In this document: positions 3,784 to 62,735 of the stretch, one piece after another
How the letters are laid out: the number at the start of each line of letters is the position of its first letter
Numbering within the stretch: the stretch's first letter is position 1
From: Patescibacteria group bacterium
GTDB taxonomy: Bacteria; Patescibacteriota; Patescibacteriia; JAXHNJ01
NCBI GenBank assembly: GCA_043812155.1
Contig: JBDRMK010000007.1
Location: forward strand, 1 to 62,735
DNA: 62,735 nucleotides
Reading direction: 5' to 3'
Notes under the pieces: generated by a model
What the model saw: only the letters and a program-made list of their open reading frames with translations
Database searches by the model: none
Told to the model about the DNA's origin: nothing
Made by a program: the position numbers and the translations under genes

Positions 3784-3790
3784 TATTTTT

Positions 3791-3935: not shown

Positions 3936-3996
3936 ATGATTTTTAATGGGTTGATATTTTCAACCTAAAATTAATTCAGGTCGCCGCTCAACGTCC

Positions 3997-4024: not shown

Positions 4025-4056
4025 AGACTAAATTAACAATTTAATAAATCATGGTT

Positions 4057-4365
4057 TAATGAGGCGTGGAACGGCGGCCTGTACCTTGGACGCTTGGGCC
4101 GTCGGGAGCAAATAGCGTAACCGGCATTATCTTTTTTTGCCGTGTTACAAAACGCCTCTATTATCAGGTGTTTTTTTGTGCCCTTTAACTTCAAAAAAGA
4201 AAGGAAAGGAGTCTTAATGAGGCGGAGCGGGTATCCCTGAATGAGGACGCCTTGTCTTCTTACACCGGTAAGGAGCGGGGGATACGCCCATAGTGTCGCT
4301 ATGGGTTACCGTTAGCAAGTGGCGTAACCGGCATTAAGTCGACTTGTTACGTATTGCGCCTCATT
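4057..4365 (+). ncRNA. two tandem related structured RNA domains (riboswitch-like leader), class unknown
   Basis: Both domains open with TAATGAGGCG (4057, 4215) and close with CGCCTC(T)ATT (4153-4163, 4356-4365). Both contain GCGTAACCGGCATTA with a gtaac..gttac helix. Confidence 0.5.
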
Positions 4366-12342: not shown

Positions 12343-12343
12343 A

Positions 12344-13027: not shown

Positions 13028-13092
13028 ATTATTTCATAAGTCTAAAAAGTAGTATTGAATTGAAACGGAAAGTAATTTTTTAAGACAAAATA

Positions 13093-14418
13093 ATGATTTC
13101 TTATAAGATACTTCATTTCTTTCTTGCCCCGTTATTTAGGTTGTGGATTAAAGATGTTATCGGTCTTGAGAATATTCCTAAAAGAGGTGGCGTAATAATT
13201 GCCATAAACCACAAAAGTTACTTTGACTTTTTGTGCTTTACGAGCATTTGTCCAAGAGAGATCAGATTTATGGCAGCCGACAAGTTCTATAAAAGCAAGT
13301 TCTGGCTGCCAATAATGAAGTTAACCCATCAAATTAAAGTTGATCGCACAGCAAAAGATAAAAGTAAAATTTTTGCAGAAGTTTTAACAGTATTAAATAA
13401 TGGCGGAATTTTTGGTATTTTTCCCGAGGGCACACGTTCTCGGACAGGTGACTTACAAAAAGCGTTTCCTGGAGTCGCAAAGTTATCTTTTTTATCTAAA
13501 GCGCCGGTAATACCAGTGGGTATTGAAGGAACATTTAAAATTTTACCGCCAAATAAAAAAATTCCCAGCCTTCGTAAATGCAATATTAAAGTAGGCAAGC
13601 CCGTGTATTTTAATAATTTGTATGACAGAGTACAGACAGAATCTCTATACCACAATTTAGCTCATCATATAATGCATAATATAGGGGATTTAAGCGGAGA
13701 AGCCTACAAGTGGTTTGTCAGAAGAAATTTTTCTTTTTTAAATATAAGCGGCGGAAAAAAAGTTGTATTCTTTGATGTTGATAATGTATTAATAAAAGGA
13801 CAAAGTTATCGATTATTTGTTCATTATTTATTTAAAAAGAATATCATTTCATTTACACAATTGTTTGCTTCTAAGTTATTATTTTTACTTTATGATTTTA
13901 ATATATTAAGACATTCTGACAAAGTAAGAGAGCTTCATTTTAATGTAATTAAAAGAATAAAAATAAATGATTTTAGAGAAATAGCCCAAAATTTCTTTAC
14001 TGATGTTATAAGGGATAGAATAAGTAGCCATGCTCTAGGAAGACTTAGGACTCATAAGAATAATAACGACATTATTATTTTATTCTCAACATCATTGGAA
14101 GATATTTTGGAGCCTTTAAGGCGATATGTTAACGCGGATTTATTGATTGCGACAAAACTTAAAATAAAATACCCTTATTACACCGGAAAAATTGATGGTT
14201 ATTCGCCACACGGCAGAATGAAAGTGGCAGTAGTTCAAAATTTTATTAACAAACACAATTTTGATAGGAGAAATATTTATGCTTATGCTGATCATTATTC
14301 GGATTTAGATTTATTGGAATTTGTTAATTATCCCGCAGTTGTAAATCCCGATCTTAGATTAAAGAAAGTAGCTATTAATAGAAAATGGCCGATATATCAT
14401 TGGAATAATAATAAATAA
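13093..14418 (+). CDS. fusion of a 1-acylglycerol-3-phosphate O-acyltransferase (PlsC-like) domain with a HAD-IB-type hydrolase domain
   Basis: HX4D (NHKSYFD) and FPEGTRS acyltransferase motifs at the N-terminus. FFDVDNVL (DxD) and ADHYSDLDLL HAD motifs at the C-terminus. Confidence 0.8.
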   Translation: MISYKILHFFLAPLFRLWIKDVIGLENIPKRGGVIIAINHKSYFDFLCFTSICPREIRFMAADKFYKSKFWLPIMKLTHQIKVDRTAKDKSKIFAEVLTVLNNGGIFGIFPEGTRSRTGDLQKAFPGVAKLSFLSKAPVIPVGIEGTFKILPPNKKIPSLRKCNIKVGKPVYFNNLYDRVQTESLYHNLAHHIMHNIGDLSGEAYKWFVRRNFSFLNISGGKKVVFFDVDNVLIKGQSYRLFVHYLFKKNIISFTQLFASKLLFLLYDFNILRHSDKVRELHFNVIKRIKINDFREIAQNFFTDVIRDRISSHALGRLRTHKNNNDIIILFSTSLEDILEPLRRYVNADLLIATKLKIKYPYYTGKIDGYSPHGRMKVAVVQNFINKHNFDRRNIYAYADHYSDLDLLEFVNYPAVVNPDLRLKKVAINRKWPIYHWNNNK

Positions 14419-47062: not shown

Positions 47063-47756
47063 CCTAAGTAAACCGGATGATCGCCCGCCTTCGCTCTGCG
47101 CTTTACGCTTGAGCTACGGCGGGCAAGCCCCTTTTTTTAGAGAAATAAGGGGGCCTGCCCGCCGAAGCCCGAAGTGAAACGTAGGGCGAAGGCGGGAGGA
47201 AAGTCCGAACACCTCTTTCGCCAGTTTTTGGCGAAAGAACAACGATAGTTCTTAACAAGAACCGAAGGGTAAGTGGTCAAAACGCTCGCGCGAATTTTTG
47301 ACGCTTTGCTTTTTAGGGAAAGTGCAACAGAAACATACCGCCGCAAGCCCTATTCACTTATCGGGGCTGGCAAGGGTGAAATCGTGTCCTCCTTCGTCTT
47401 CCTACGGAAGACTATGGCGGATTCTCCGAAACCAAACGCATTCTGTATCATCTTTGTTTTACAAGGATTGATACTCCGAAGCCTTGGCGAAGGAGTAAGG
47501 TAAGAGCTCACGCTTTTCCAAGGTGACTTGGAAAAGGGGAAAACCCTATCGGGTGCAAGACCAAAGTTATTTCCGGTTAAAATTTAGCCGGGGATGGGTA
47601 GGTCGCATGACTCCGGCCGCAAGGCCAGGGGCAAGAGAGATGATCATCCTGCCTTCGTCAAGACTTCGGCAGGCAAGCCCTCTTATTTTAAGGAGGGACT
47701 TGTCCACCGTAGCCTTGGCGAAGGTGGACAGAATTCGGCTTATAGGTTTACTTAGG
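47063..47756 (+). ncRNA. rnpB: RNase P RNA (bacterial type), unusually long because of GC-rich hairpin insertions
   Basis: P1 cctaagtaaacc/ggtttacttagg. Conserved blocks GGAGGAAAGTCCGAACAC (47196), AGTGCAACAGAAACATACCGCC, GGGTGAAA, GGTAAGAGCTCACG and ACAGAATTCGGCTTATAGG (47728). Confidence 0.85.
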
Positions 47757-50926: not shown

Positions 50927-52066
50927 ATGCGGATCGGCATTGACGCCCGTTTTTACGGCCCATTGACCAAGGGGCTAGGGCGTTATAGTGAAAAATTGAT
51001 TCAGTATTTGCAGGAATTGGACCACCAGAATGAGTATGTTATTTTTTTGAGGAAGGAGACTTGGGAAAAATTTCAGCCGAAGAACGCCAATTTCAAAAAA
51101 GTCTTGGCCGATTTTCGCTGGTATTCTCTGGCGGAGCAGATTAAAATGCCGGGTCTGATAAAAAAACAACACTTGGATCTAATGCATTTTCCGCATTTCA
51201 ACGTCCCGTTATTATATCGGGATAAGTTTGTCGTCACTATCCACGATCTTATATTAACTCATTTTCCCACCCAACGGGCCTCCACTTTAAGTCCTTTAGT
51301 CTATTGGCTGAAACATTTGGCTTACCGGCTCGTGATCCGACGAGCGGTGAAAAAAGCGGCCAGGATCATTACCATTTCCCAATATTCCAAAAAACAGATT
51401 ATTGCCAATTTCGGAGTGGCTCAAAATAAAATCGCGGTCACTTACGAAGCGACCAGTGATTTCAAGCCGACGCCGGCCAAAGTTTCCGAGGAGGATTTTT
51501 CCCTTAAATACAAGATCCAAAAGCCATATCTTTTGTACGTTGGCAACGCTTATCCCCACAAAAATTTAGAAAGATTAATTTCCGTGTTTAAGACTCTGGT
51601 CCAGGAGAAAAGCCTTGACTTGAAGCTGGTCTTTGTCGGCAAGCTGGATTATTTTTACACCCGATTGCAAAATCTGGTCAATGAATTAAAATTAGACCAT
51701 AAGGTGTATTTCTTGGGTTATGTCGAGGATGAAGAACTTAAATTTTTGTATCAGAATGCCTTGCTTTACGTTTTTCCTTCTCTTGAGGAAGGATTTGGCT
51801 TGCCGCCTTTGGAGGCGATGACCCAAGGCCTGCCTGTGGTGTCAAGCAAAGCTTCCTGTTTGCCGGAAATATTGAATGAAGCGGCTTACTACTTTGATCC
51901 GAAAAGCGAGAAAGAAATGGCTGAGGCGATTATTAAAATGACTAGTGATGGAAGTTTGAGAAATAATTATAAAGCTAAAGGAATTAACCAGGTAAAAAAG
52001 TACGCATGGCCGGTTTTGGCCCGAGAGACCTTAGAGATTTATCAATCAGCCATAAATAACCGATGA
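50927..52066 (+). CDS. glycosyltransferase (GT4-like)
   Basis: VFPSLEEGFGLPPLEAMTQGLPVVSS. Confidence 0.85.
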   Translation: MRIGIDARFYGPLTKGLGRYSEKLIQYLQELDHQNEYVIFLRKETWEKFQPKNANFKKVLADFRWYSLAEQIKMPGLIKKQHLDLMHFPHFNVPLLYRDKFVVTIHDLILTHFPTQRASTLSPLVYWLKHLAYRLVIRRAVKKAARIITISQYSKKQIIANFGVAQNKIAVTYEATSDFKPTPAKVSEEDFSLKYKIQKPYLLYVGNAYPHKNLERLISVFKTLVQEKSLDLKLVFVGKLDYFYTRLQNLVNELKLDHKVYFLGYVEDEELKFLYQNALLYVFPSLEEGFGLPPLEAMTQGLPVVSSKASCLPEILNEAAYYFDPKSEKEMAEAIIKMTSDGSLRNNYKAKGINQVKKYAWPVLARETLEIYQSAINNR

Positions 52067-54222
52067 ACAGCCATTATCAGAAAAATACCTCCAAAGATGA
52101 TCAAGAGGAATATTTAAAAAAAACACGGGTCCCCCGCGATAATGTTTTAGATTTAAAACATTTGTTTGCCCCGGAAGAAGAGGTGAAAAGAACCAGTCTG
52201 CGGGGTAAATTTAATCTGAGTAAATTTTGGCCAAAATTGCCCGCGGCAAAAAAAATAAAACTCGGCGGGCTGGTTATCGGCTGGAAAAATGTGATAGTTT
52301 TCGGGGTAGTCTGTCTCGTTTTGATATTGCCTTTTTTATGCGCCCAAGGCTATCAAGGTATAAATAATCTAAAAGGCCGGGTCTTGGGTGTTTCGGTGAG
52401 CGCTTTGGATAATTTAAAAAGCGCCGGGCTGGCTTTGAGCAATTTTGACATGGCGACCGCCGCCGACCGCTTCAATCAGGCGGAAAATGATTTTAACGCC
52501 GCTCAAAAAGAACTGAGCCAAATTAATGACGTAATTTTCGCCCTGATAAAAATCATTCCCTTTAAAGGGGAAACCGTGACTTCCGGCCAGCATCTGATTT
52601 CCGCGGGCAAGAATATCGCGGAAATAGGCCAGCTTATCAGCGAACAATTAAAGCCTTTAACCGGAGAGCTTAAACTTAAAGAAGGCGAACTGGTCGTTCC
52701 AAAAGTGCTGTTTTCATTCCGACAGAGCTTAGAAGTGGTGTCGGATAAAATGAAAGCGGTTAAAAACGATTTAGACAAGGTAAAGATCGAGAGTTTGCCT
52801 CAGGAATATCAGGTCCAGATTCTGAAAATCAGAGAGGCCTTACCGGCCTTGGATGAATATCTTGAAAAAAGCAAATCAATGTTTTCCGTCTTAACTTCTC
52901 TTTTAGGCCAGAATAAGACCCAGGAATTTATTTTCATTTTTCAAAATAACCGGGAAATAAGGCCGACCGGCGGTTTTATGGGCAGTCTGGCTTTGGTGAC
53001 GGCGAAGAACGGCGAGGTGAAAATTTTGGAAGTGCCGGGCCGGGGGCCGTACGAGATAAACGATGATCTGTCTGCCGACATAATTCCACCCAAGCCCTTG
53101 TGGCTGGTCAACAATAAATGGGGGATACAGGACGCCAACTGGTTTCCCGATTTCCCGGCCACAGCCCAAAAAATAAACTGGTTTTATGAACTGTCCCGCG
53201 GCTTTTCCGTGGACGGCATCGTGAGCCTTACCCCGGATATTATTATTGATCTGTTGAGAATAACCGGACCGATAACTTTGGATAAGTACGAAACCGTGAT
53301 CACCGCCGATAATTTCATTGAAAAAACCCAGCTTAAGGTGGAAGTGGAGTATGATAAAGCGACTAACCAGCCTAAAGCCATAATCGGAGACTTGATCCCG
53401 CTGCTTTTAAATAAAGTTTTAAAGACCAAGCCCGGCGATTTTCTGGAACTGGCAAAGGTTTTACAAAAAGCGGTGTCAGAAAAAAACCTGCTGATCTACG
53501 CCAAAGACGAAAATTTGGAAAAAGAATTGATTGACCTGGATTTGGGCGGTGAGATCAAAACCGCGCCTAAAGATTATCTAATGGTGGTCAATACCAATAT
53601 CGGCGGCGGGAAAACCGACGGCGTGATTAGGCAGGAAATTTTACACGAGGTTTCTTTTTATTCTGACGGCGAGATTGTAGATACTTTAACAATTAAACGG
53701 ACGCATCAAGGTGATCCTAATAATTCTGTTACTAAAATAAAAAATATGGATTATTTAAGAGTTTATGTGCCGGCCGGCGCCGAACTTTTAAGCGCTTCCG
53801 GTTTTAGCGAGATCGATAAAAATTTGCTTAAATATCCTGATGAAAAGGCGGTTGAAGACAAGGATCTGATGAATATTGAAAAAGATCCGGTGATTGACGA
53901 AAGAAGCAACACGCGGATAACTTCTGAATTCGGCAAGACTTGTTTTGCTAATTGGTTAAACGTGGAAGTGGGAGAAAGCAAGGAAGTTGTTCTAAAATAT
54001 AAACTGCCCTTTAAACTTGAAGAGGCGGGTGTTTATTCTTTGTATTTACAAAAACAGCCGGGAGTAAACGATTCCTCGTTCACCGGCACTTTAACCCTGC
54101 CTTCAGATTTCAGCTTAATCCAAGGCTTGCCCGAAGGCATAATTAAAGATAATGAGGTTAATTATCAAACAACCATTAATGAAGATAAGGTTTACGGCGT
54201 GGAATTGGATAAATTAGAATAG
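52063..54222 (+). CDS. DUF4012-like membrane-anchored protein
   Basis: N-terminal TM segment, FIFQNNREIRPTGGFMGS block, 719 aa, EPS context. Confidence 0.65.
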   Translation: MNSHYQKNTSKDDQEEYLKKTRVPRDNVLDLKHLFAPEEEVKRTSLRGKFNLSKFWPKLPAAKKIKLGGLVIGWKNVIVFGVVCLVLILPFLCAQGYQGINNLKGRVLGVSVSALDNLKSAGLALSNFDMATAADRFNQAENDFNAAQKELSQINDVIFALIKIIPFKGETVTSGQHLISAGKNIAEIGQLISEQLKPLTGELKLKEGELVVPKVLFSFRQSLEVVSDKMKAVKNDLDKVKIESLPQEYQVQILKIREALPALDEYLEKSKSMFSVLTSLLGQNKTQEFIFIFQNNREIRPTGGFMGSLALVTAKNGEVKILEVPGRGPYEINDDLSADIIPPKPLWLVNNKWGIQDANWFPDFPATAQKINWFYELSRGFSVDGIVSLTPDIIIDLLRITGPITLDKYETVITADNFIEKTQLKVEVEYDKATNQPKAIIGDLIPLLLNKVLKTKPGDFLELAKVLQKAVSEKNLLIYAKDENLEKELIDLDLGGEIKTAPKDYLMVVNTNIGGGKTDGVIRQEILHEVSFYSDGEIVDTLTIKRTHQGDPNNSVTKIKNMDYLRVYVPAGAELLSASGFSEIDKNLLKYPDEKAVEDKDLMNIEKDPVIDERSNTRITSEFGKTCFANWLNVEVGESKEVVLKYKLPFKLEEAGVYSLYLQKQPGVNDSSFTGTLTLPSDFSLIQGLPEGIIKDNEVNYQTTINEDKVYGVELDKLE

Positions 54223-54238
54223 CAGCGTAATTCAGCAG

Positions 54239-54247
54239 TTATCCACA
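54239..54247. promoter_or_regulatory. perfect DnaA-box 9-mer
   Basis: TTATCCACA immediately after the DUF4012 stop. Confidence 0.45.
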
Positions 54248-54249
54248 AA

Positions 54250-54271
54250 GGCCAGATGTTGGCCTTTTTTT
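54250..54271 (+). terminator. intrinsic terminator
   Basis: ggcca-gatgt-tggcc followed by TTTTTTT. Confidence 0.75.
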
Positions 54272-54383
54272 AATATCCAAAAAACAGGCATTTTTGACTG
54301 ATTTTGCCTTGTTTTTGATCATATTAAATAATTAATTTAACCTAACATTAGGCAAAAATAGACTGGGGTGGGGATAACCCCCC

Positions 54384-54412
54384 TTGACAATAAAACCAGG
54401 CCATTCTATATT
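54384..54412 (+). promoter_or_regulatory. sigma70-like promoter at the left edge of the island
   Basis: A GC hairpin ggggtggggataacccc abuts TTGACA, then a 17-nt spacer and TATATT. Confidence 0.55.
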
Positions 54413-54873
54413 GACCAGTTAAGTGAAAAGAGGGAGAGAGACAAAGTCTTAGAGGAGGGGACTTTGACAACCAAATAAGAGTGAGGAGAAAGAGGAGAGA
54501 GAACCGATTTTTATATAGTCGGTAATAGAAGATTTATATTAAAGTGTTTTTAATATTGAAAAAGGGCTCTCTCCAAATATGTTGGTAGGGTCCTTTTTTG
54601 TTGGCTTATTATCTTAATGAGAGAAAAGGAGGGTAGTTAAGGCGTTCTCCCCGAAAGGGCTTGGAACGACCGAGGCCTGAGAGAAAGTCAGGGCAGGAAT
54701 TATCTTGCCCTAGAACTTTCACGAAAGGCCGGGCCTGGTCTCAAATCAATCGATATGAGAATCAAGCCGCACTATCCTTCTGTTCTCTCCTTAAAGATCT
54801 TTGAGGAGCAAGGAGGGGAGGGGGTCTAGTATCCTCTCTCTTCCTACCGTAGTTTTCCTTGAAAAAAAATAAA

Positions 54874-55016
54874 ACCTCCAGGGTAGTCACAGGGAGGGTG
54901 AGAAAATCATTTCGGATGATGTTGAATGTTTGGTCGGGTTTACTCGATCATCCACTCACTTCATCTTTAGGCCTGTTCTTTTTTTAAGAAAAGATTGCCA
55001 TTTTATTCTCACCTCC
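54874..55016 (+). repeat. diverged member (R0) of the SD/anti-SD-ended structured repeat family
   Basis: 5' ..cctccaggg..agGGAGGGTGAGaaaat and 3' attttattCTCACCTCC are inverted. It shares the ttaggcc-hairpin-gattgcca-ttttatt-ctcacctcc layout with R1 and R2. Confidence 0.4.
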
Positions 55017-55080
55017 GTGTGCGTGCTCTGGATTACATAACAAACGTTTGGATAAGGAATTCCGAAATGAAGAAGTGATT

Positions 55081-55320
55081 ATGTTCAAAGTATTGATTAT
55101 TGTCGGTACTATGATAGTAATTCGTCGGATACTTAATCTTCATTTCCATATTACCAAGCATGGCGTTCATCGCCCTGTATGGTGGATATGGAAAGATGAA
55201 GGCTGCTGGCGTTATATTCCTCGTGAATACGATCCCAGCGAAATGCGGGAATGTACTTGCTGCGGGAAGGCGTTCTGGCGGGCGAAAGGAAGTATCTTCT
55301 GGCAGGCAGTTTGCCATTAA
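55081..55320 (+). CDS. possible small TM plus Cys-rich protein
   Basis: MFKVLIIVGTMIVIRRIL... then CTCCGK. Several overlapping ORFs exist on both strands, so the call is uncertain. Confidence 0.3.
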   Translation: MFKVLIIVGTMIVIRRILNLHFHITKHGVHRPVWWIWKDEGCWRYIPREYDPSEMRECTCCGKAFWRAKGSIFWQAVCH

Positions 55321-55587
55321 ATCTTTGTTCTTTTCTAAAGGATATATTCCAGGCCAGTCTTTGGCCAAAACCGGGGAACGAGATTGCCATTGCTTCAAAG
55401 CTTTCGCATCACTCTCGTCCCCCGGACTTTTTCAAGGGCATTAATGCTTTAGTGCCTTAGAAAAAGTCCAAATTAATTTGGACATTGTTCTTCTTTAAGA
55501 GATGCCCCACAAAGGTATCTCCCCGCTAAGACCAGTTTACTGGTCATCCCCGGGGGAGTCGTATCAAAGACCCGATTCCTCCATTCC

Positions 55588-55618
55588 CTTGAGAGCATTG
55601 AAACAAAATGCTTTCAAG
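55588..55618 (+). promoter_or_regulatory. leader hairpin (cttgagagcatt / aatgctttcaag)
   Basis: Paralogous to 56118-56153. Followed by agagtgaaagtgg.. and an SD. Confidence 0.5.
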
Positions 55619-55669
55619 AGAGTGAAAGTGGTCAGGTAGATTTTGACAACTCGAACAGGAGGTTCTGAA

Positions 55670-55855
55670 ATGACTTGGAAAAAGGTAGGTTTATCAAACT
55701 GCGGGATGCTGCTGTTCGTGCTCGGTTTCGGGCCGCTCGGGGTCAACCATTGGTTGACTCATACGATCGGTTGCGGACTGATCTTCGGCGGTTTGACGCT
55801 GACGCTTACCATTGTGTTGACGCCAAGCCCGTCGGTAAAGGAGGCAATAAGATGA
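55670..55855 (+). CDS. small 2-TM protein (61 aa)
   Basis: SD caggagg 7 nt upstream. MTWKKVGLSNCGMLLFVLGFGPLG...GLIFGGLTLTLTIVL. Confidence 0.6.
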   Translation: MTWKKVGLSNCGMLLFVLGFGPLGVNHWLTHTIGCGLIFGGLTLTLTIVLTPSPSVKEAIR

Positions 55856-56046
55856 AAGCCATCTGTATACTTCTGGTAACGGTGGATGCGTGCCTATACT
55901 TGGCCGCGATTACCGTTCTGGCAACGCTAATGCCGCCATATTACGTGGTATGCGTTGTCCTGGGGGTCGGCATATACGATTTCATCGCCACTACTCGGTT
56001 TTCTCGCCGTTGGTGGCAGATGACAAGGAGAATCCTCGGCCGGTAG
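55852..56046 (+). CDS. small 2-TM protein (64 aa), translationally coupled
   Basis: ATGA start/stop overlap with the previous ORF, SD aaggagg upstream; MKAICILLVTVDACLYLAAITVL... Confidence 0.6.
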   Translation: MKAICILLVTVDACLYLAAITVLATLMPPYYVVCVVLGVGIYDFIATTRFSRRWWQMTRRILGR

Positions 56047-56117
56047 CCATATCGGCCATTATGCACCTTCTTGCACAACCAACCTTTGGGGGGTCCGAAA
56101 CAGCAACGACCCCCTAT

Positions 56118-56153
56118 CTTCCGAGAGCATTAAAAGATTAGTGCTTTCAGAAG
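56118..56153 (+). promoter_or_regulatory. leader hairpin (cttccgagagcat / gtgctttcagaag)
   Basis: Same design as 55588-55618. Followed by agaatgaagtcgg.. and SD taaggagg. Confidence 0.5.
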
Positions 56154-56194
56154 AGAATGAAGTCGGCTGTTTGTAAATTTTAAGGAGGTCAGTC

Positions 56195-56368
56195 ATGCGT
56201 GAGATTCTTATCAATTTACTGATATCAAGTATTGCGTGTGTCATCTTGGCGATTGGATTGAATGCAAATCATAAGATTCAGCTTGGAATCAGCATCTTGG
56301 CGACCATACAGGTGATTTTGGGAAGCCTCAATTTTGTTCTTATATCCCGTAAGAACAGAATAAAGTAG
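56195..56368 (+). CDS. small 2-TM protein (57 aa; below the ORF-track cut-off)
   Basis: SD aaggagg 6 nt upstream. MREILINLLISSIACVILAIGL...ISILATIQVILGSLNFVLI. Confidence 0.55.
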   Translation: MREILINLLISSIACVILAIGLNANHKIQLGISILATIQVILGSLNFVLISRKNRIK

Positions 56369-56641
56369 AGGCAACGCACTTTTACCCGAGAGAGAGATCC
56401 GCTTCTAGCGCTTTTTTCTCTCGGCTTTCCCAAGCTAAGCAATAAATTGGTTAGCTTAGGAAAGAGTTCTTTGACACGCCTCCGTCTCCCTGCGGGAGAT
56501 TTCGGCGCGCGAGACTCAGTAAAACCATGTTTATTTCTGTTTGGCAAGCCCTGATGTTTGTCATCGGGTATTCCGTTGAGCTTGACCAAAAAATCCCATG
56601 GCCATGAGCCACAGGATTTGAGAAACGGGTATTTTGAAAAT

Positions 56642-56935
56642 TTAATATTCCAGTTTAACCTTAACTTTACGCGCCAGCTGGCGGATTAGGTCTTCCAGGC
56701 GGGCAACCTCTTTATAAAGAGCGCGGTCAAGCTTAGCTTCTATTCTTGATAGGCGTTGGCCGTGATCAGAGAGTTCCTCGTGAATAACTTGTAAATCCTG
56801 CTTAGTTGCCATGTCCTTAATATCCTGTTTCGTTGCCATATCGGCAATATCGCGTTTAGTTGCGGTTTCGTCAAAACCACGGGCCACCATCCTGGCCAAT
56901 TCATTCAGAGTAATTTGTTTTTTTGACTTTTTCAT
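56642..56935 (-). CDS. coiled-coil protein with a short tandem peptide repeat
   Basis: TKRDIADMATKQDIKDMATKQDLQ repeat followed by a heptad-like C-terminus. Has its own promoter. Confidence 0.65.
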   Translation of the reverse strand: MKKSKKQITLNELARMVARGFDETATKRDIADMATKQDIKDMATKQDLQVIHEELSDHGQRLSRIEAKLDRALYKEVARLEDLIRQLARKVKVKLEY

Positions 56936-56973
56936 AATCTATCTTCCTATTTAGCCGCCAAAACTGCTTACTT

Positions 56974-57002
56974 ATTATAGTTTAGCCTTTAAAAAGCGTC
57001 AA
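56974..57002 (-). promoter_or_regulatory. sigma70-like promoter (minus strand)
   Basis: Minus strand reads TTGACG, 17-nt spacer, TATAAT. Confidence 0.55.
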
Positions 57003-57056
57003 GATGCATTAATATATTAAATATAAATCCGTCTTATCAGCTCTTTGACTAAAAAT

Positions 57057-57246
57057 CTTTCTTCGCCACCTCCATGGAGGGTGAGTCTCCCTGTCGAAAG
57101 ATAGGGCAATCGACTGGGGATATATTGATTGTTTAACTTGGTTTCACTAAGTTAAATTAGTTGATTATCCCTTAGGCCCTTTACTTCTTAACCGGGTAAA
57201 GATCAGCCAAATTAAACTCACCTCCAGTGAGGTGGTGGAAGAAGAA
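57057..57246 (+). repeat. structured repeat R1 (about 190 nt) with inverted SD-like / anti-SD-like ends
   Basis: 5' cgCCACCTCCatgGAGGGTGAG and 3' CTCACCTCCagtGAGGTGGtg. The internal long hairpin is gggatatattgattgtttaactt / aagttaaattagttgattatccc. Confidence 0.6.
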
Positions 57247-57297
57247 ACAACGGTTTCAGAAAGACTGCTAGAAAAGGCGGTCAAGAAAGGAGTCGTC

Positions 57298-57549
57298 ATG
57301 GACGACTATGAAGGCAGTTTTCGCCAGGAAGGTCAGCAAGCGTATAATGCTTGGCTGAAACAGATGCTCATAATGGCTCTCGTTATATTCGGGGTTTTGA
57401 TTGTCGCAATCTGGGTTATTCCTCTGGCAATGTGTCACGGCTTGCAGATTCATAGCAAGGTGATGACGCAAGCCAAGATTGCCGCTACGGTCATTGGCGT
57501 ATTGGGTATCGTGTTGGGCTTTTGGTCAATTTGTTCCGAAAGGAAATGA
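57298..57549 (+). CDS. small 2-TM protein (83 aa)
   Basis: ATG behind aaaggag. The ORF-track GTG start (57232) lies inside repeat R1. Confidence 0.6.
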   Translation: MDDYEGSFRQEGQQAYNAWLKQMLIMALVIFGVLIVAIWVIPLAMCHGLQIHSKVMTQAKIAATVIGVLGIVLGFWSICSERK

Positions 57550-57810
57550 ACTCGACCAAGTAGTACCTACGGTTTTACGGGCGTCTGCCAGCCTAAGATG
57601 GTAGAGTTTTTCTCATGAAAAGAAGGATTGATGACGTACGAACCTTAGGTGGAGGTGAGACCACCTTAAAAAACACTAAAAGATATGGCGGCGGACGCCT
57701 GAAACTGAAGTTCCGCGGGGGCTTGAGCGCACAACTAAGTCTTAAGCCCCTTCCTTCTCAAGCCGACAATGAATTGCCGGTTTAAGAAGGAAAAGTTCTT
57801 TATATCAAAC

Positions 57811-57999
57811 CTTTCTCCGCCACCTCTATGGAGGGTGAGTTGACCCTGTCGAATGACGGGGGCAATCGACTGGGGATATATTGATTGTTTAACTTGGTTT
57901 CACTAAGTTAGATCAGTTGATTATCCCTTAGGCCCTTTACTTCTGAAAAGAGTAAAGACAAGCCAATTTAACTCACCTCCAGTGAGGTGGCGGAAAGAA
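57811..57999 (+). repeat. structured repeat R2, direct copy of R1
   Basis: Roughly 85-90 percent identical to R1 by eye, including a 48-nt identical block. The closing pair changes from ggtggtg to ggtggcg. Confidence 0.6.
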
Positions 58000-58060
58000 T
58001 AATTAATTTAAGTATTGAACTTTTCAGGCAGTTATTCAACCTTTGCTAGGAGGTACGGTC

Positions 58061-58798
58061 ATGAACGGTAGAATCAGCAAGACGGGAGACGCCGGTTACT
58101 TTTTTATCGCCGGCGATGACGGGGGCAACTACTATTCCCGCGACGAATGGGTCTATTCCAGCTTCCGTGGCAGGATCGAACTCAACGCCCGGGTGGAGTT
58201 TCAGACCCGGGTATGGCAGGGAAAGCCGCAGGCTTTCGCGGTCAGAGCGGAAGCTTTAGCCGCGTCGCAAGCCAAGTCGGTCAGGACCGTCAAGTTTGAC
58301 GAGCACCACGATGGCCGGCTTCAGCTTCTTCACTCCATTCTGGAGGAGGGAAGGAAGCCGAGCGATGATGAGCAGAAAACGCTCTTCGCGGTGTGGCTGA
58401 CGGATGCCCAGGGGCATCTGCTCACGGATCAGTACGACTGCGGAAACTGCGCCCGGCACCCGCGCTTCTACCGGCAAAGGTTCGACGGACTCTACGTCGT
58501 GACCTTCGGCCAGGATTACCCCGCGGTGATTCTCTGTGAGAAGTGCCGCCGTCGCTTCTCCCAGCTGTACCCTTCGTGCCAGACGAATATCAGTCCGCTC
58601 TATGATACCCTGGAAAGACTCGGTATTCGGCCGAACGGTCGCGGCTGGACTCTCGGTCAGGCCGCCAATTCCCATCGTCGGGAAAAGAATCGGCGAATCA
58701 TCAAGCCGATTTTCCAGGCTTCGGAAAAGGCCCGGCAGAGCAATGAAGAGCTCGTCGAGAAGTTCTCGAAACGCTGGCGCGAGCAGAAGACCGCCTGA
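58061..58798 (+). CDS. cold-shock-domain-like N-terminus plus CxxC..CxxC zinc-ribbon protein
   Basis: SD aggagg. GRISKTGDAGYFFIAGDDGGNYY...RVEFQ...GKPQAFAV follows the Csp pattern (KGFGFI..DDG...V.F...G..A..V). Also CGNCARH...CEKCRRR. Confidence 0.65.
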   Translation: MNGRISKTGDAGYFFIAGDDGGNYYSRDEWVYSSFRGRIELNARVEFQTRVWQGKPQAFAVRAEALAASQAKSVRTVKFDEHHDGRLQLLHSILEEGRKPSDDEQKTLFAVWLTDAQGHLLTDQYDCGNCARHPRFYRQRFDGLYVVTFGQDYPAVILCEKCRRRFSQLYPSCQTNISPLYDTLERLGIRPNGRGWTLGQAANSHRREKNRRIIKPIFQASEKARQSNEELVEKFSKRWREQKTA

Positions 58799-58920
58799 CA
58801 TCGTATAAAAATTAGGAAGGGGCTCGCAAGACTTGAAATACAGTTTTGTCCGCCCCTTCCGCTCTCTTGAGCCTATCAGAAAAAATCTGGTAGACTGAAG
58901 AGAGTTCTTTGAGAAAAAAG

Positions 58921-59042
58921 TTGGCAGCGGTTCGTCTGTTAGCATATAGCCTATGGCTTATGGCATATAGTTTGTTTGTTTAGTAGTTTTTTCCATAAGC
59001 TATAGGCTATAAGCCATACGCTAGCAGTTGGGCCGCTGCCAA
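58921..59042. repeat. low-complexity long hairpin, no ORF
   Basis: ttggcagcgg..gcatatagcctatggcttatggcatatag // ccataagctataggctataagccatacgc..ccgctgccaa. Confidence 0.6.
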
Positions 59043-59045
59043 TCC

Positions 59046-59183
59046 TGTTTGACCCGAAATCAGACAGTAAAATAATCGGGTGAGCGATTATTTTTGCCGA
59101 TAAGGCGGCAAATGAGGGCCCGAAACCCTCGACTGTTACCCGGACCCGAAATCCGGATTTCATACCGACGGCCCGAAACCGTC
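59046..59183 (+). promoter_or_regulatory. array of four stem-loops with an identical CCCGAAA loop
   Basis: tgtttga-CCCGAAA-tcagaca (59046), gaggg-CCCGAAA-ccctc (59114), ccgga-CCCGAAA-tccgg (59140), gacgg-CCCGAAA-ccgtc (59167). The SD and ATG follow at 59192-59206. Confidence 0.6.
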
Positions 59184-59203
59184 ATAAATCAGGGAGGTTC
59201 GAA

Positions 59204-59761
59204 ATGTCGAACGTATATGTTGAGAGGCTCGAAGCGGAATACCGCCGAGCCAGCAATCTGGTCAAGTTCTTCGTCGGGTGTTTGATCATCGTCGGTCTCG
59301 TTCTGGTCCTTTGCTTCAAGCCGTTTTTTGGTGATCGTCCGGCTTTGGACTCCCTGTGCTGGAGCACGGGAATTGTCGTCGTCGGCATCGGCGCCGCCGC
59401 ATTTCTTCTGATGGAAATGAAGAAGAAGATGGTTGATGGCCAAGTGGATAAGGCTTTCAAAAACTTCTTCGGGTTTTATCCGCAGATCGCCGATATAGAG
59501 CAGTTTTCGGTCACGGCCGAAGGCATGGTGAGGAATCAGCTTAAAATCAAGTCTGCCCTACTGAAACAGACGCTGGGAGCGAAAGATGCGCTCAAGTCCG
59601 CGATCAAAGAGGGCAAGATGACCAAGGCTTTCCAGTACATCAATCGCTGCCTTAAGCAGGATGTTGATGAGATCTTCAACGCGTACGATGCCGCGATGTA
59701 TCGCGGCTACCTGCGCGACGTGCTCAAGGAGAGGTCCCTCGAAGCCCTAGCTTCGCTCTAA
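59204..59761 (+). CDS. 2-TM protein with a helical soluble C-terminal domain (185 aa)
   Basis: SD agggagg 6 nt upstream, two hydrophobic segments, then a charged helical tail. Confidence 0.7.
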   Translation: MSNVYVERLEAEYRRASNLVKFFVGCLIIVGLVLVLCFKPFFGDRPALDSLCWSTGIVVVGIGAAAFLLMEMKKKMVDGQVDKAFKNFFGFYPQIADIEQFSVTAEGMVRNQLKIKSALLKQTLGAKDALKSAIKEGKMTKAFQYINRCLKQDVDEIFNAYDAAMYRGYLRDVLKERSLEALASL

Positions 59762-59846
59762 TCTCTGATTACCTGTCTCACCGCAGGTAATTGATCTTTG
59801 GAAGGGGAGCGAACGTTTTGAAAAATTCGTTTGCTCCCCAACCTAC

Positions 59847-59875
59847 TTGAGTCCGCAATTAATAAAGTGTATAAT
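59847..59875 (+). promoter_or_regulatory. sigma70-like promoter
   Basis: TTGAGT, 17-nt spacer, TATAAT. Confidence 0.5.
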
Positions 59876-59932
59876 TGTAGGCTCAAATAGGTTCATTGAA
59901 AGTTTTAAAACAACTAGCGCGGAGGTTATGAC

Positions 59933-60355
59933 GTGAAGAAGATTAGTTTGATTGAAGTCTTTATTGGTATAGTCGTGGTGGCTTTGCTCGCGGCAGTCTT
60001 GTCACCTTCATTGACTCTCTGGCTGGTACGGGCTCGGGAAGCGGAGTTCGCGGTCAATTATTCCGCTGTCCAGAAAGCAGCCGAGGATTTCGCTATTCAG
60101 AATTACGGCCGTTTTCCTCGGAATATCGATAAAGATAAAACGCCGTCCGGACAAACGCTTCGGGATATCGTGTCTGCATACGACAGCATTTCTAATCCGT
60201 TCACCAAGAACGGGGTCACGGTAGTAATCAACGGGATAGCCTGGAAGATTGGGCAGGTCGGATACTTGCCAAATTTTCAGGACAGTATCCCGGTCGGCTG
60301 TACGATTACCGCCGTTGGTATTATAGGTGATACAGTCATCGTCTGTCCAAAGTAA
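59933..60355 (+). CDS. pilin/pseudopilin-like protein (atypical N-terminus)
   Basis: GTG behind ggagg. MKKISLIEVFIGIVVVALLAAVL resembles a class III signal but lacks the Gly before the cleavage site. DFAIQNYGRFP resembles the GspG-type Y..dnG.yP segment. Confidence 0.55.
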   Translation: MKKISLIEVFIGIVVVALLAAVLSPSLTLWLVRAREAEFAVNYSAVQKAAEDFAIQNYGRFPRNIDKDKTPSGQTLRDIVSAYDSISNPFTKNGVTVVINGIAWKIGQVGYLPNFQDSIPVGCTITAVGIIGDTVIVCPK

Positions 60356-60367
60356 CGGAGGTTAGTG

Positions 60368-60766
60368 ATGAGAAAAGCCTTGATTTTCGCCTTGATTTTT
60401 TTGGCCGTAGTCGGCGGGCTCTCCCTTCGTTCCTATATCCTTGAGAAGAAGGAACTGAATGATGTCCGCCGGATCTGCTCTTTCTATTATGCTGTGGCCG
60501 TCCATTATGAGGAATTGAACGGCCGACCGCCGGAGTCGTTATCGGCCAAAATCGGCGGCACGACTCTGGCTGATTCGATCGTTACTCGGTGTTCCGAAGC
60601 AGGGATACCGGTAATCTCCATGGATTCGATGATGGTCTATAAGGACGTCATCGAGATCCGGCATGCGCCATGTATCACTATGAATCTCGATAGCAGTTTT
60701 GCAGTATACTGGAAGGAGGATTTTACAGAACATCTGTACGCCGTATACTCGCCAAGCGGTGAGTAG
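60368..60766 (+). CDS. second TM-anchored pseudopilin-like protein
   Basis: ATG behind ggagg. N-terminal hydrophobic helix, then HYEELNGRPPESL. Confidence 0.5.
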   Translation: MRKALIFALIFLAVVGGLSLRSYILEKKELNDVRRICSFYYAVAVHYEELNGRPPESLSAKIGGTTLADSIVTRCSEAGIPVISMDSMMVYKDVIEIRHAPCITMNLDSSFAVYWKEDFTEHLYAVYSPSGE

Positions 60767-60888
60767 GGAATTGCCCTTTTTTCGTCATATCGGGCACGTT
60801 CAAGTCCAACTCTTCGGACGTGCCTTCCTTCCTAGGTCATTATTACTACCAAAATAGTGGCTTGAGAAGGGTAATATTTATTAACCCC

Positions 60889-60916
60889 TTGACATTTTAT
60901 TCAATATAGTTATATA
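60889..60916 (+). promoter_or_regulatory. sigma70-like promoter at the right edge of the island
   Basis: ccccTTGACA, 16-nt spacer, TATATA. Confidence 0.5.
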
Positions 60917-60922
60917 TTGAAG

Positions 60923-61066
60923 ACAGAAAGCTGTCTGTAAGCCTAAAATCAAGAATTTCTGTGGCAATAGCAAATCTCTCTCCTCTTGTTTTAGAAACGC
61001 AAGTTTTTAAAGCAAAGCTACTGAACAGTCATTCTCAAATTTACAAAGCTTACAGGCAGCTTTTTG
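60923..61066 (+). ncRNA. candidate small RNA (about 140 nt)
   Basis: A 14-nt 5' segment agctgtctgtaagc (60929-60942) pairs with gcttacaggcagct (61048-61061) and is followed by TTTTT. It lies just downstream of the promoter. Confidence 0.4.
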
Positions 61067-61130
61067 CGTTTACTTTATTTTTTCGCTTTGAAACTGGGTT
61101 GGTTATTGTTATTTTAAGCATACTGCTGGT

Positions 61131-61650
61131 TAAATTCCAAATTTCAAGCATCAAATTTCAAATAAGCTCCAAATTTCAAAACCAAAATTCAAAACACAAG
61201 GTTATTTGGATTTTTCAATTATAGAACAGAAGATTTTCTTGAGCTCAATGGATTCGTTAAAAAGGAAATAGCCTTGTTTTTGGATATCTTCTTTATTGGT
61301 TTCCATTAACAATCTTAGCCAATAGGCGGATTCTTTCGCTTCTTTGCGGCAAATTTTTGCTCTTAAAAGAAAATCTTTTCGGCTCAAAGACTCATTGGCC
61401 TCAATATAATTGGCACCAACAGAACCGGCTGATCTTACCACTTGTTTTTTATATTCCAAGTTGGCCGCCGTGTAGGGTATTTTTTGCGTATAAAGAGCGA
61501 CGTTTTTGGCGAACTTAAAACATCTTTCCTCTAAGTCATAGTATTTGTTTCGGTCATTGAAATTTTGGTCATTGTCCGCCCGAGGCGGAACAGCCTTGGG
61601 CTGAGGATTTATTTGTGTTTTGGGATTTGTGATTTGGTGCTTAAACATAA
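61131..61650. repeat. hairpin cassette whose loop carries a four-helix-bundle gene (minus strand)
   Basis: The arm taaattccaaatttcaagcatcaaatttcaaataagctccaaatttcaaaaccaaaattcaaaacac mirrors ggatttatttgtgttttgggatttgtgatttggtgcttaaac. Confidence 0.65.
61202..61648 (-). CDS. four-helix-bundle protein (IVS/Avd-like family)
   Basis: YDLEERCFKFAKNV...KKQVVRSAGSVGANYIEANES.SRKDF..RAKICRKEAKES.YWL. The start MFKHQITNPKTQ is encoded by the arm. Confidence 0.85.
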   Translation of the reverse strand: MFKHQITNPKTQINPQPKAVPPRADNDQNFNDRNKYYDLEERCFKFAKNVALYTQKIPYTAANLEYKKQVVRSAGSVGANYIEANESLSRKDFLLRAKICRKEAKESAYWLRLLMETNKEDIQKQGYFLFNESIELKKIFCSIIEKSK

Positions 61651-61739
61651 AAAGAGGCCTTCCAAAGCCACCTATCACAATTATATAAAAAGCGCGGCCA
61701 GTTGTCAAAAGCGCGAATTTCTGTTAAAATTCGTTTATT

Positions 61740-62735
61740 ATGTTTGGTAAAATATGGCATAAATTGCAAACAACCGTGGCCGGGGGAGCGATGATCATCG
61801 CTTTTGCTTCTATTATTTCCCGCCTTTTAGGATTATTGCGCGACCGCTTGTTCGCCTCCACTTTCGGAGCAGGGGATATTTTGGACAGCTACTACGCGGC
61901 CTTCCGTTTGCCGGACCTTATTTTTAATGTTTTGGTCTTAGGCGCCCTTTCCGCCGCTTTTATCCCGGTATTTTTGGAATATTGGCAAAAAGATAAAGAA
62001 GGGGGTTTTACCCCCAAGGAAGCCTGGCGGATCACCAATTCCGTTTTAAACATTTTTTGCCTGATCCTTGTTTTTTTAGGCTTGATATTTTTTATTTTTG
62101 CTCCCCAGATCACTTCCTGGATAACGCCCGGTTTTTCTCCGGAAAAACAGGCGATGACCATGAAATTGACCCGGATAATGCTTTTATCAATAATATTTTT
62201 TGGCGTTTCCAATATTATCGGCAGTATTCTTAATTCTTTCCGGAAATTCGTCGCTTTTGCTTTCGCGCCGGTGATGTATAATATCGGAATTATTCTGGGC
62301 ATTACGTTTTTTTACAAATGGTGGGGGCTGGCGGGTCTGGCCTGGGGTGTTGTCTTAGGCGCTTTTTTGCATATGGTTATTCAGCTGCCTTCGGTCTTGA
62401 AGACCGGCTATCATTACCAATGGCTTTTTGATTTTCACCATCCCGGCGTCAAAAAAATGTTCCGCCTTATTCTGCCCCGTACTTTCGGCCTGGCGGTGGG
62501 TCAGATCAACCAGCTGGTGATCACCATTGTCGCTTCTTTTCTGGCGGCCGGGTCGCTGGCCGTTTTTAATCTGGCCAATAATCTGCAGAGTTTTCCCATT
62601 AATGTCTTTGGCGTTTCTTTGGCCATTGCCGCTTTTCCTCTGATGAGCGAGGCTTTTGCTTCCCGGTCCACGGAAAAATTCGTGGTCCAGTTTTCCGTCA
62701 CTTTGCGCCGGGTTTTATTTTTGATTATTCCCGCC
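61740..62735 (+). CDS. murJ: lipid II flippase MurJ (MviN), 3' end outside the window
   Basis: The open frame from the ATG at 61740 reads ...ISRLLGLLRDRLFASTFGAGDILDSYYAAFRLPDLIFNVLVLGALSAAFIPVF. It is absent from the ORF track because no stop lies in the window. Confidence 0.88.
   Translation, partial: MFGKIWHKLQTTVAGGAMIIAFASIISRLLGLLRDRLFASTFGAGDILDSYYAAFRLPDLIFNVLVLGALSAAFIPVFLEYWQKDKEGGFTPKEAWRITNSVLNIFCLILVFLGLIFFIFAPQITSWITPGFSPEKQAMTMKLTRIMLLSIIFFGVSNIIGSILNSFRKFVAFAFAPVMYNIGIILGITFFYKWWGLAGLAWGVVLGAFLHMVIQLPSVLKTGYHYQWLFDFHHPGVKKMFRLILPRTFGLAVGQINQLVITIVASFLAAGSLAVFNLANNLQSFPINVFGVSLAIAAFPLMSEAFASRSTEKFVVQFSVTLRRVLFLIIPA

Follow-up and report, generated by a model that had tools for sequence, protein, structure and literature searches.

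Between positions 54384 and 61066 of contig JBDRMK010000007.1 (assembly GCA_043812155.1), from a member of the ultra-small Patescibacteria, lies a locus in which conserved RNA modules alternate with small genes that change from one relative to the next. The stretch analysed, referred to as the window, is 62,735 nucleotides long; the host genome is low in G+C (0.43) and nearly all genes are on the plus strand. The same locus, enclosed by a DUF4012 gene and murJ, is present in at least eight related assemblies (L001, L006, L010, L011, L012, L013, L014 and L015), which come from Logan, ENA, NCBI and JGI and have DUF4012 identities from 83% down to 42%. Open reading frames (ORFs) are replaced between these relatives and the gene content differs in every genome, while the RNA modules are retained. 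The locus is specific to, and vertically inherited in, one Patescibacteria clade. It is read here, with a probability of roughly 0.45, as an attenuator-controlled polycistronic array, in which RNA punctuation and leaders of a four-way junction type (R elements) are serviced by a cold-shock-type protein encoded in the locus itself. Attenuators, intercistronic hairpins, structured leaders and Csp-like and pilin-like proteins are all known kinds, the families seen here being themselves undescribed; a locus-specific array with RNA modules that outlast the genes they flank is an organisation found neither in Rfam nor in the literature.

RNA modules of the array

Related loci were gathered from the neighbourhoods of DUF4012 homologues and by a DNA-pattern search for R. 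The R element and the hairpin H2 were detected in all eight further assemblies, and the promoter, its leader, the R elements, the hairpin modules and the RNA at promoter P2 all recur between DUF4012 and murJ. An earlier, sequence-only reading of the region had described it as an island; in the sense of a horizontal insertion this is not borne out, the locus being syntenic in at least eight independent assemblies. That reading was to be given up if the region proved syntenic with housekeeping content: the synteny was found, the housekeeping content was not, as gene content varies in every genome. Recurrence between DUF4012 and murJ in independent assemblies means that the locus is inherited and that its junctions are not assembly errors. 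The RNA features and promoters are the following:

54384..54412, plus strand: promoter P1, TTGACA-17-TATATT, 11/12 consensus matches
54420..54600, plus strand: P1 leader, attenuator-like, conserved across 7 aligned genomes
54876..55030, plus strand: R1, short form of the R element (covariance model 130.6 bits)
55426–55466 and 55583–55622, plus strand: two H2 hairpins (model 49.3 and 35.3 bits)
56086..56155, plus strand: H1+H2 module (fold; model 44 bits), 80% identical to L001 2903–2993, where the flanking ORFs differ
56386..56475, plus strand: H1+H2 module, then GUUCUUUGAC (fold and model); homology with L001 begins right after the stop codon
57059..57239, plus strand: R2, long form with outer P0 helix (162.1 bits)
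57576..57750, plus strand: conserved noncoding hairpin module, overlapping a 56-amino-acid (aa) ORF at 57615–57785
57715..57791, plus strand: H1+H2 module, then GUUCUUUAU (fold and model)
57813..57994, plus strand: R3, long form, leader of the cold-shock-domain gene (158.6 bits)
58815..58904, plus strand: H1+H2 module, then UUCUUUGAG (fold and model)
58921..59042, plus strand: long hairpin of about 120 nt with 48-nt arms (fold), conserved at L011 20257–20429
59045..59183, plus strand: array of hairpins with CCCGAAA loops and two other hairpins, in the 5' untranslated region (UTR) of a 185-aa gene
59803..59893, plus strand: H1+H2 module with long-loop H2 (fold; no H2-model match)
60791..60871, plus strand: final H1+H2 module of the array (fold and model)
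60889–60918, plus strand: promoter P2, TTGACA-18-TATATT, 11/12
60889..61070, plus strand: promoter P2 with a structured RNA of about 150 nt, the murJ leader

The R element is a four-way junction of 150–190 nt. By covariance model the window has R at three sites and no more, each on the plus strand, in agreement with the three structured repeats noticed earlier. In an alignment of 13 copies from seven genomes, 94% of the cells are paired, and 21 of the 37 pairs have changed on both sides, compared with 5–11 in slid controls; none of 500 shuffles reached the observed pairing and covariation values. The R3 copy folds with an energy of -93.6 kcal/mol (z = -11.3). The G-U pairs are invariant and the plus-strand score is far above that of the minus strand, which together point to a plus-strand RNA. 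Of the helices, the closing one, GGAGG(G)UGA/UCACCUCC, hardly varies and the others drift; the 3' strand of this closing helix reads like the canonical anti-Shine-Dalgarno sequence of bacterial 16S rRNA, although the clade's own 16S rRNA may differ. The long form adds an outer helix, CCACCUC/GAGGUGG. Where present, R is located between H2 and the Shine-Dalgarno sequence, 47–83 nt upstream of the start codons of different genes, and in L001 and L011 the first copy is more than 250 nt away from the next ORF. R1 has positional orthologues in L001, L010, L011 and L013, and R2 and R3 are 92% identical.

The R2/R3 pair was also considered as the template and variable repeats of a diversity-generating retroelement and rejected as such, since a reverse transcriptase is missing and the two repeats are RNA leaders that covary. 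Miniature inverted-repeat transposable elements (MITEs) and repetitive extragenic palindromes (REPs) were rejected for both R and H2, all copies of which are in one locus, on one strand and at orthologous positions. Just 3' of the first R copy, a tRNA-like element is present in L006 (8459–8545) and L010 (8272–8372). Its acceptor-like stem is 5–7 bp long (GGCGGC in L006, GCGGU in L010), its T-arm is GGGUUCGAUUCC, and its 3' strand has CCGCCA at the end. Neither ARAGORN nor Rfam calls this element, which may be a signal for processing by RNase P/Z or what is left of an attachment site.

Nearly every ORF of the array is preceded by a tandem-hairpin module made up of H1 and H2; eight of these modules are present in the region and none elsewhere in the 62.7 kb. 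H2, about 41 nt long, consists of 7 bp at the base, a single bulged nucleotide and an upper stem of 10 bp, and 12 of its 17 pairs covary among paralogues. H1 is a GC-rich hairpin of variable sequence, which abuts H2 in every folded spacer. The paralogous hairpin leaders that had been recognised from the sequence alone correspond to seven H2-model matches (55426, 55583, 56115, 56424, 57751, 58861 and 60825), with none outside the region; an eighth hairpin of this type, at 59840, is seen by folding alone. Matches are confined to the locus and score best on the plus strand (7 in the window, 16 in L011, 8 in L012 and 8 in L001), giving about one per gene, the 16 belonging to the most complete related locus. 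From the end of H2 to the next start codon there are 23–84 nt, with a median of about 45 (21 starts, tallied by hand). H2 is often followed by single-stranded (G)UUCUUUGA, and YCTTT[GA] is found within 16 nt 3' of H2 in 17 of 44 copies, against a background of 2% (p = 5e-18). The preferred sequence of Bacillus subtilis CspB is GTCTTTG/T (PMC1904285). When promoters and terminators were scored, no H1 hairpin scored as a terminator, and no canonical terminators are present at H1. The H2 copy at 55583–55622 (CUUGAGAGCAUUGAAACAAAAUGCUUUCAAGAGAG) is 91–95% identical in L001, L006 and L010, a conservation far beyond structural need and beyond that of the nearby proteins.

The hairpin module at 57576–57750 has blastn matches at L001 4978–5070 and at L011 17156–17243, 18720–18807 and 18863–18892. 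The 56-aa ORF at 57615–57785 overlaps this noncoding sequence conserved in L001 and L011 and is therefore probably spurious. At 59045–59183, the four-hairpin array reported in the sequence-only reading is indeed present, with four hairpins that share an identical 7-nt loop, CCCGAAA, on different stems. It contains four of the six CCCGAAA occurrences in the whole window and was not found in the related loci.

An Rfam search of the region gave no gathering-level match, the best matches in E-value mode being microRNA and small nucleolar RNA models far below threshold, and the same search of the L006 locus was likewise without a gathering-level match; no tRNA is present in the region. An rRNA operon, an intron or a known noncoding RNA was rejected as the cause of the low coding density: Rfam finds just the RNase P RNA and a c-di-GMP-II riboswitch, both elsewhere in the window. 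A literature search yielded no relevant described RNA motifs or variable pilin loci in the candidate phyla radiation (CPR).

Both promoters that had been proposed as the limits of the region exist, each preceded by CCCC and each with 11 of 12 consensus matches. The right-hand one, however, drives a conserved murJ leader and does not form a boundary. Promoter-like hexamers aligned with P1 are present in all seven genomes compared, with a variable -10 element (TATATT, TATAGT or TAGCTT), and between 54.4 and 60.9 kb P1, a strong promoter, is the sole one on the plus strand scoring 11/12. The leader that follows, one of the candidate small RNAs that had been suggested and that are both identified here, the other being the P2 RNA, contains in order a hairpin, CUUUGACAA, GA motifs (54433 and 54494), a second hairpin, an intrinsic terminator and a U run. 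The terminator is located at 54563–54600 and its 5' arm is GGGCUCUCUCC. The GGAGAGAG motif can pair with the CUCUCUCC arm of the U-tailed terminator hairpin, so that the leader looks like a terminator/antiterminator attenuator, with the terminator 3' arm and GGAGAGAG competing for one CUCUCUCC segment. GGAGAGAG and CTCTCTCC each occur just twice in the 62.7 kb. In silico, the leaders of seven genomes have a terminator hairpin, a U run and an upstream segment that pairs with the terminator 5' arm; nascent-transcript folds form the GA:CU antiterminator in 7/7 leaders, and the full-length fold takes the terminator in 3/7.

The P2 RNA is the conserved 5' leader of murJ. It is closed by a 19-bp stem between its 5' and 3' ends together with U5, carries AUCUCUCUCCUCUUG, and has 78% column identity over four genomes; in L006 and L012 it lies 55–58 nt from the murJ start codon. 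Over 13 nt, the AAGAGGAGAGAGA motif of the P1 leader (54489–54501) and AUCUCUCUCCUCUU of the murJ leader RNA (60972–60985) are perfect complements. Both motifs are kept in relatives, and on the strength of this complementarity an interaction of small RNA and leader that links the array to murJ is possible.

Replacement of genes between fixed modules is seen most directly when the window is compared with L001. The modules at 56063–56155 and 56374–56464 are 77–80% identical to their L001 counterparts, and the ORFs between them are unrelated: the slot of the 57-aa membrane ORF is occupied in L001 by a P-loop gene and a Csx3-like gene. After the variable slot, homology resumes right past the stop codon. 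The closest relative (81% DNA identity in DUF4012) diverges immediately after R1. RNA modules are 77–95% identical where the proteins have no detectable similarity; as the modules outconserve the proteins and show compensatory changes, they are under selection. Some proteins do recur, namely pilin-like proteins (window, L006, L011 and L012), the cold-shock-domain (CSD) protein (window, L001 and L006, with a CSD-only variant in L011), the reverse-strand 97-aa protein (window and L012) and assorted multi-transmembrane and signal-peptide proteins. Cassette polymorphism was looked for within two populations represented by assemblies from different samples (L005/L011 and L006/L007/L008); identity across the locus was 99.9–100% instead. 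In L001, at 3096–3983, the P-loop protein (191 aa) is translationally coupled to the Csx3-like protein (102 aa), which scores 23.1 bits against Pfam Cas_csx3 (cutoff 21); no other cas gene was seen there.

Encoded proteins

Downstream of P1 the array comprises ten small co-oriented ORFs and one reverse ORF. The genes and ORFs are listed below, with GC3 denoting the G+C content of third codon positions and TM a transmembrane segment:

55081..55320, plus strand: 79-aa ORF with a TM helix at the N terminus and a tail rich in Cys; weak homologue at L011 19447–19713 (E = 3e-6)
55670..56046, plus strand: two small membrane ORFs (61 aa and 64 aa) with an ATGA overlap; GC3 0.66 and 0.63
56195..56368, plus strand: ORF of 57 aa with two TM helices
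56642–56935, minus strand: 97-aa coiled-coil repeat protein, with its own promoter at 57002–56974 (11/12)
57298..57549, plus strand: ORF of 83 aa with two TM helices; AAGGAG Shine-Dalgarno sequence 6 nt upstream of the start
58061..58798, plus strand: CSD and zinc-ribbon protein of 245 aa with an Arg-rich tail
59204..59761, plus strand: ORF of 185 aa with two TM helices and a helical C-terminal domain
59933..60355, plus strand: pilin-like protein of 140 aa
60365..60766, plus strand: 133-aa ORF with a TM helix at the N terminus, perhaps another pilin-like protein; no homologue detected

In the 245-aa protein, residues 5–73 match cold-shock domains and two CxxC pairs are present, as expected from the cold-shock-like/zinc-ribbon assignment made from the sequence alone. 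A profile of the family aligns these residues with the repeated CSDs of numerous multi-CSD proteins (E down to 6e-13) and with solved Csp structures (E = 0.01–0.02). Among 5.8 billion proteins just two relatives were found, both encoded between DUF4012 and murJ (L001 and L006); searching the GTDB and JGI collections with the protein as query gave no additional loci. A CSD-only relative in L011 is likewise encoded behind an R element. A CSD protein is present in four of the five loci sampled beyond their first cassettes, and in three of them it is directly behind R. The gene is preceded by a structured leader of about 500 nt. Cold-shock proteins, as RNA chaperones and antiterminators, and the long autoregulated 5' UTRs of cspA type resemble this arrangement in the putative N-terminal CSD-like oligonucleotide-binding fold, in single-stranded UCUUUG-type motifs, in the structured leader and in the terminator/antiterminator start. 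The locus protein differs in its length of 245 aa, the added zinc ribbon, the Arg-rich tail, membership of a three-member family and a similarity that is below Pfam CSD detection.

A membrane helix is predicted in eight of the ten ORFs tested. Five small proteins with two TM segments had been proposed; by Kyte-Doolittle analysis, those at 55852, 56195, 57298 and 59204 on the plus strand have two segments, and the one at 55670 has one clear and one weaker segment. The repeat protein on the opposite strand is as described before, with 97 residues and ATKxDI repeats (56642–56935, minus strand), and a 57% identical orthologue is encoded at L012 14653–14955, also on the reverse strand. The 185-aa protein exceeded the curated cutoff of no Pfam family and matched nothing in PHROG, PADLOC or the phage records.

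Two proteins had been called pseudopilin-like. For the one at 59933–60355 (plus strand) the call is supported by homology to L006 9430 (E = 2e-21) and L012 16493 (E = 1e-10); for 60365–60766 it comes from the N-terminal helix only. The L012 protein (RFTLIELMIVV) passes the PF07963 N_methyl threshold (21.6 against a cutoff of 21.2 bits). The window protein (MKK/ISLIEVF...) has E5 and the helix, lacks Gly at -1 and has no Pfam match. Type IV pilin clusters are similar in that each locus has one or two pilin-like ORFs and that, in L012, an orthologue with the N-methylation motif is followed by a Peptidase_A24-like mini-protein; they differ in that assembly ATPase, platform and secretin genes are absent from the locus and in that the window protein, without Gly -1, is below the Pfam threshold. 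The mini-protein, encoded directly 3' of the L012 pilin-like gene (17062–17433), has 123 aa and three TM segments, and its similarity to Peptidase_A24 (type IV prepilin peptidase) is sub-threshold (22.5 bits, cutoff 26.5).

None of the array ORFs of the window matched a Pfam or PHROGs family. In PHROG no match reached E < 0.003 and none had a role in phage structure, replication or integration; when 50,697 phage records were searched by tblastn with the 245-aa and 185-aa proteins, neither gave a match; the R, H2 and P2 patterns are absent from IMG/VR, no plasmid match was found, and PADLOC returned no matches for ten window ORFs. These searches agree with two observations of the sequence-only reading: that no integrase, tRNA or phage structural gene is visible (Pfam, PHROG and tRNA searches found none), and that the combination matches no named system (no Rfam, Pfam, PHROG or PADLOC match). 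Of the identities it had suggested, a defence or toxin module is unsupported in the window, where PADLOC has no matches, with one relative carrying a Csx3-like cassette; a lysis or holin-like cassette finds nothing in its favour beyond the small membrane proteins, with no PHROG or phage matches.

The higher G+C content and sparse, overlapping coding that had set the region apart are real: G+C is 0.468 in 54384–61066 and 0.424 in the rest of the window, coding density is 52%, and there are many ORF overlaps, on both strands. The excess is located in the array ORFs (GC 0.506 and GC3 0.607; housekeeping genes have 0.443 and 0.503), and the RNA modules of the spacers are at host level (0.439). In the window, L001, L006, L011 and L012, the GC3 of array ORFs is 0.10–0.16 above that of housekeeping genes and tracks host GC; no such elevation is seen in the spacers or in the 97-aa gene on the reverse strand. 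It may have its source in selection, in biased gene conversion or in a mobile gene pool that the genomes share.

Interpretation of the array

If the favoured reading is right, read-through at P1 would give one long transcript across the array of small genes, most of which encode membrane, secreted or pilin-like products. H1 and H2 would be processing sites or stability caps, with the polycistron cut into mRNAs ending in H1 and starting with H2, or, alternatively, common operators. The CSD/zinc-ribbon protein would be a trans-acting factor at pyrimidine-rich UCUUUG sites, tuning read-through, decay or translation, its own gene included. On such a fixed RNA scaffold ORFs could be exchanged, making the locus an expression platform for fast-changing envelope proteins. 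Heavy post-transcriptional control of envelope or host-interaction proteins, one of the possibilities raised in the sequence-only reading, was a sound candidate in this respect; the region is dense in RNA structure.

Punctuated polycistronic mRNAs are exemplified by the RNase III sites of phage T7, the stabiliser hairpins of Rhodobacter puf and E. coli mal, and tRNA punctuation in mitochondria. The array is like these in having conserved hairpins in each intercistronic spacer, one after the stop codon and one at the head of the next 5' UTR, and in the tRNA-like acceptor/T-arm element that two relatives carry within it. It is unlike them in that the hairpin is a sequence- and structure-conserved family of one chromosomal locus; cleavage here is putative. 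Processive-antitermination RNAs, such as the EAR element of Bacillus eps operons, put of phage HK022 and the lambda N/boxB system, are also structured RNAs in or beside long operons, and like EAR ours is associated with envelope polysaccharide genes; the CCCGAAA hairpins are of boxB size (17–23 nt) and have identical loops. In contrast to those RNAs, there is no Rfam match and no N-like or NusG-like gene was identified at the locus, and an effect on termination is putative.

Several points weigh against the favoured reading. The single long transcript, the processing at H1/H2 and the attenuation are predictions from sequence, and binding of UCUUUG by the CSD protein is an analogy drawn from a distant Csp. 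The exact YCTTT[GA] motif is found in just 17 of the 44 H2 copies. Direct comparison of the 245-aa protein with Pfam CSD (PF00313) gave no match at E <= 0.1, and its AlphaFold2 model (predicted local distance difference test score, pLDDT, 50) is too poor to judge the fold. In L012 the modules are present and no CSD gene is recognisable. Weaker internal promoter-like sites exist at 59049 and 59847 (10/12 each). The invariance of the R closing helix is unexplained by a simple role in stability. Finally, all genomes are fairly close relatives, so that some covariation counts are inflated by shared ancestry.

A bolder form of the same idea, which we regard as rather unlikely, is an RNA-scaffolded cassette array, with RNA modules read by a dedicated CSD/zinc-ribbon protein. 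Its modules would be the attenuator leader, the H1-H2-UCUUUGA punctuation and the R junctions with their closing helix resembling a Shine-Dalgarno:anti-Shine-Dalgarno pair, and jointly they would supply read-through, processing and translation signals to any ORF placed between them. Such a system would be a functional analogue of an integron without an integrase, its "sites" being kept as RNA, and would let host-dependent bacteria quickly turn over surface and pilus-associated proteins.

Gene-by-gene translational switching, with R as a ligand-sensing riboswitch or thermosensor and H2 as a translational operator, is likewise an unlikely explanation. In this case the anti-Shine-Dalgarno-like CACCUCC of R and its partner GGAGGGUGA would form the expression platform. 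R looks like an aptamer: several helices meet at a junction whose nucleotides are conserved, the arms covary and the P1 helix is invariant. R lies at the short distance from start codons of different genes given above, the four strands of the long form can re-pair as two local hairpins in the manner of a two-state design, and cspA-type genes use long structured 5' UTRs. However, all strands that are Shine-Dalgarno-like or anti-Shine-Dalgarno-like are paired in both conformations, so that none is free to mask the real Shine-Dalgarno sequence 50–65 nt downstream. The downstream genes share no function (two-TM, secreted, pilin-like and CSD proteins), an unusual set for a metabolite riboswitch. 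In L001 and L011 the first R copy is more than 250 nt from the next ORF, and R has no Rfam match.

An integron-like array of DNA cassettes, with H1+H2 modules as single-strand recombination sites analogous to attC, an unlinked recombinase and a fixed promoter, is improbable. Integron arrays, and clusters of attC sites without an integrase (CALINs), are alike in having one upstream promoter, co-oriented small ORFs, bulged hairpins and variable content. Here, too, small ORFs of mostly unknown function follow one promoter with an imperfect bulged hairpin between each, the cassette content differs in every relative, the GC3 of cassette ORFs is 0.10–0.16 above that of the host in all five genomes, and a gene for a hairpin-acting Y1 (IS200-type) transposase is found beside murJ in L012 and at 1025–1627 in the window. 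Against this, no integrase or recombinase is encoded in or adjoining the locus in any genome; the Pfam check covered all locus ORFs of the window, L001, L011 and L012 and 16 ORFs elsewhere in the window. Core site pairs (R''/R') are missing, with 0 RYYYAAC...GTTRRRY pairs at a spacing of 40–150 nt on both strands of 54223–61740. The hairpins are conserved in the manner of RNA, with G-U pairs and a much higher score for the transcribed strand, and they are positionally fixed: H1 and H2 stay in place though both neighbouring ORFs change, whereas a true attC would travel with its ORF. The near-identity of same-population assemblies across the locus also argues against cassette movement. The attC reading was rejected on the zero core pairs, the missing integrase and sites that do not travel with ORFs.

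Even less probable is a decayed mobile element, prophage remnant or defence island that became fixed here, its hairpins being leftover terminators or repeats without a joint function. The raised GC3, the orphan status of all ORFs, the Csx3-like gene of L001 and the PF05635 gene inserted next door would fit. Yet the RNA modules are better conserved than the proteins and show compensatory changes, no integrase, phage, plasmid or PADLOC match exists, and the locus occupies the same position in genomes down to 42% DUF4012 identity. An assembly chimera at 54.3 and 61.1 kb, suspected earlier and suggested by the change in composition and nothing further, can be dismissed, since the junctions of DUF4012 with the P1 leader and of the P2 RNA with murJ recur in independent Logan, ENA, NCBI and JGI assemblies.

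Patescibacteria make up a large share of bacterial diversity, and their gene regulation and surface variation are barely known. The locus yields four well-supported RNA structures new to Rfam (R, H2 with H1, the P1 attenuator and the murJ leader) and adds a new family of predicted RNA-binding proteins. Should the cold-shock-type protein use the modules as processing or operator sites, the locus would offer a compact model of operon punctuation in a minimal genome and a handle on variable envelope and pilin-like proteins that probably mediate host attachment; should the modules be recombination sites, it would represent a new system of gene capture. In both cases the locus can be charted across CPR genomes with the R and H2 covariance models.

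Flanking genes and other observations

Identification of the flanking genes bears out the placement given in the sequence-only reading, between a sugar (exopolysaccharide) cluster and a four-helix gene before murJ. On the 5' side are RecJ, RNase H and the RNase P RNA, followed by a sugar-transferase/GT4/Wzz/GT4/DUF4012 cluster ending at 54222. The genes nearest to the array are:

52063–54222: DUF4012 gene, final gene of the sugar-transferase/Wzz/GT4 cluster
61202–61708, minus strand: PF05635 four-helix gene, followed by murJ, which starts at 61740

The PF05635 gene (23S rRNA intervening sequence/Avd-like) is located between the murJ leader RNA and murJ in this genome only. It is flanked by CAAATTTCAA-type repeats (61128–61195), which in L001 are found again at 6504–6571 and, after murJ, beside another copy (8636–8678).

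A more distant relative, L016 (38% DUF4012 identity), has a gap of 2 kb between DUF4012 and murJ (12263–14258), which is mostly noncoding. It contains a P1-type promoter with a GAGGAGAGAG leader, one GC-rich ORF of about 134 aa and three diverged elements closed by GGAGG...CACCUCC, which were seen by eye only and are missed by the covariance model. This gap is possibly a minimal form of the locus.

The Y1 transposase gene of the window (IS200-type, 1025–1627) is next to LexA and 53 kb from the array, and that of L012 (20367–20903) is directly 3' of murJ; a tie to the hairpins is not established. Elsewhere in the window, a c-di-GMP-II-GAG riboswitch match is present at 4051–4135, with 47.6 bits (gathering score 40). 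The bacterial class A RNase P RNA at 47146–47689 is 544 nt long for a model of 367 positions and must therefore contain large insertions.

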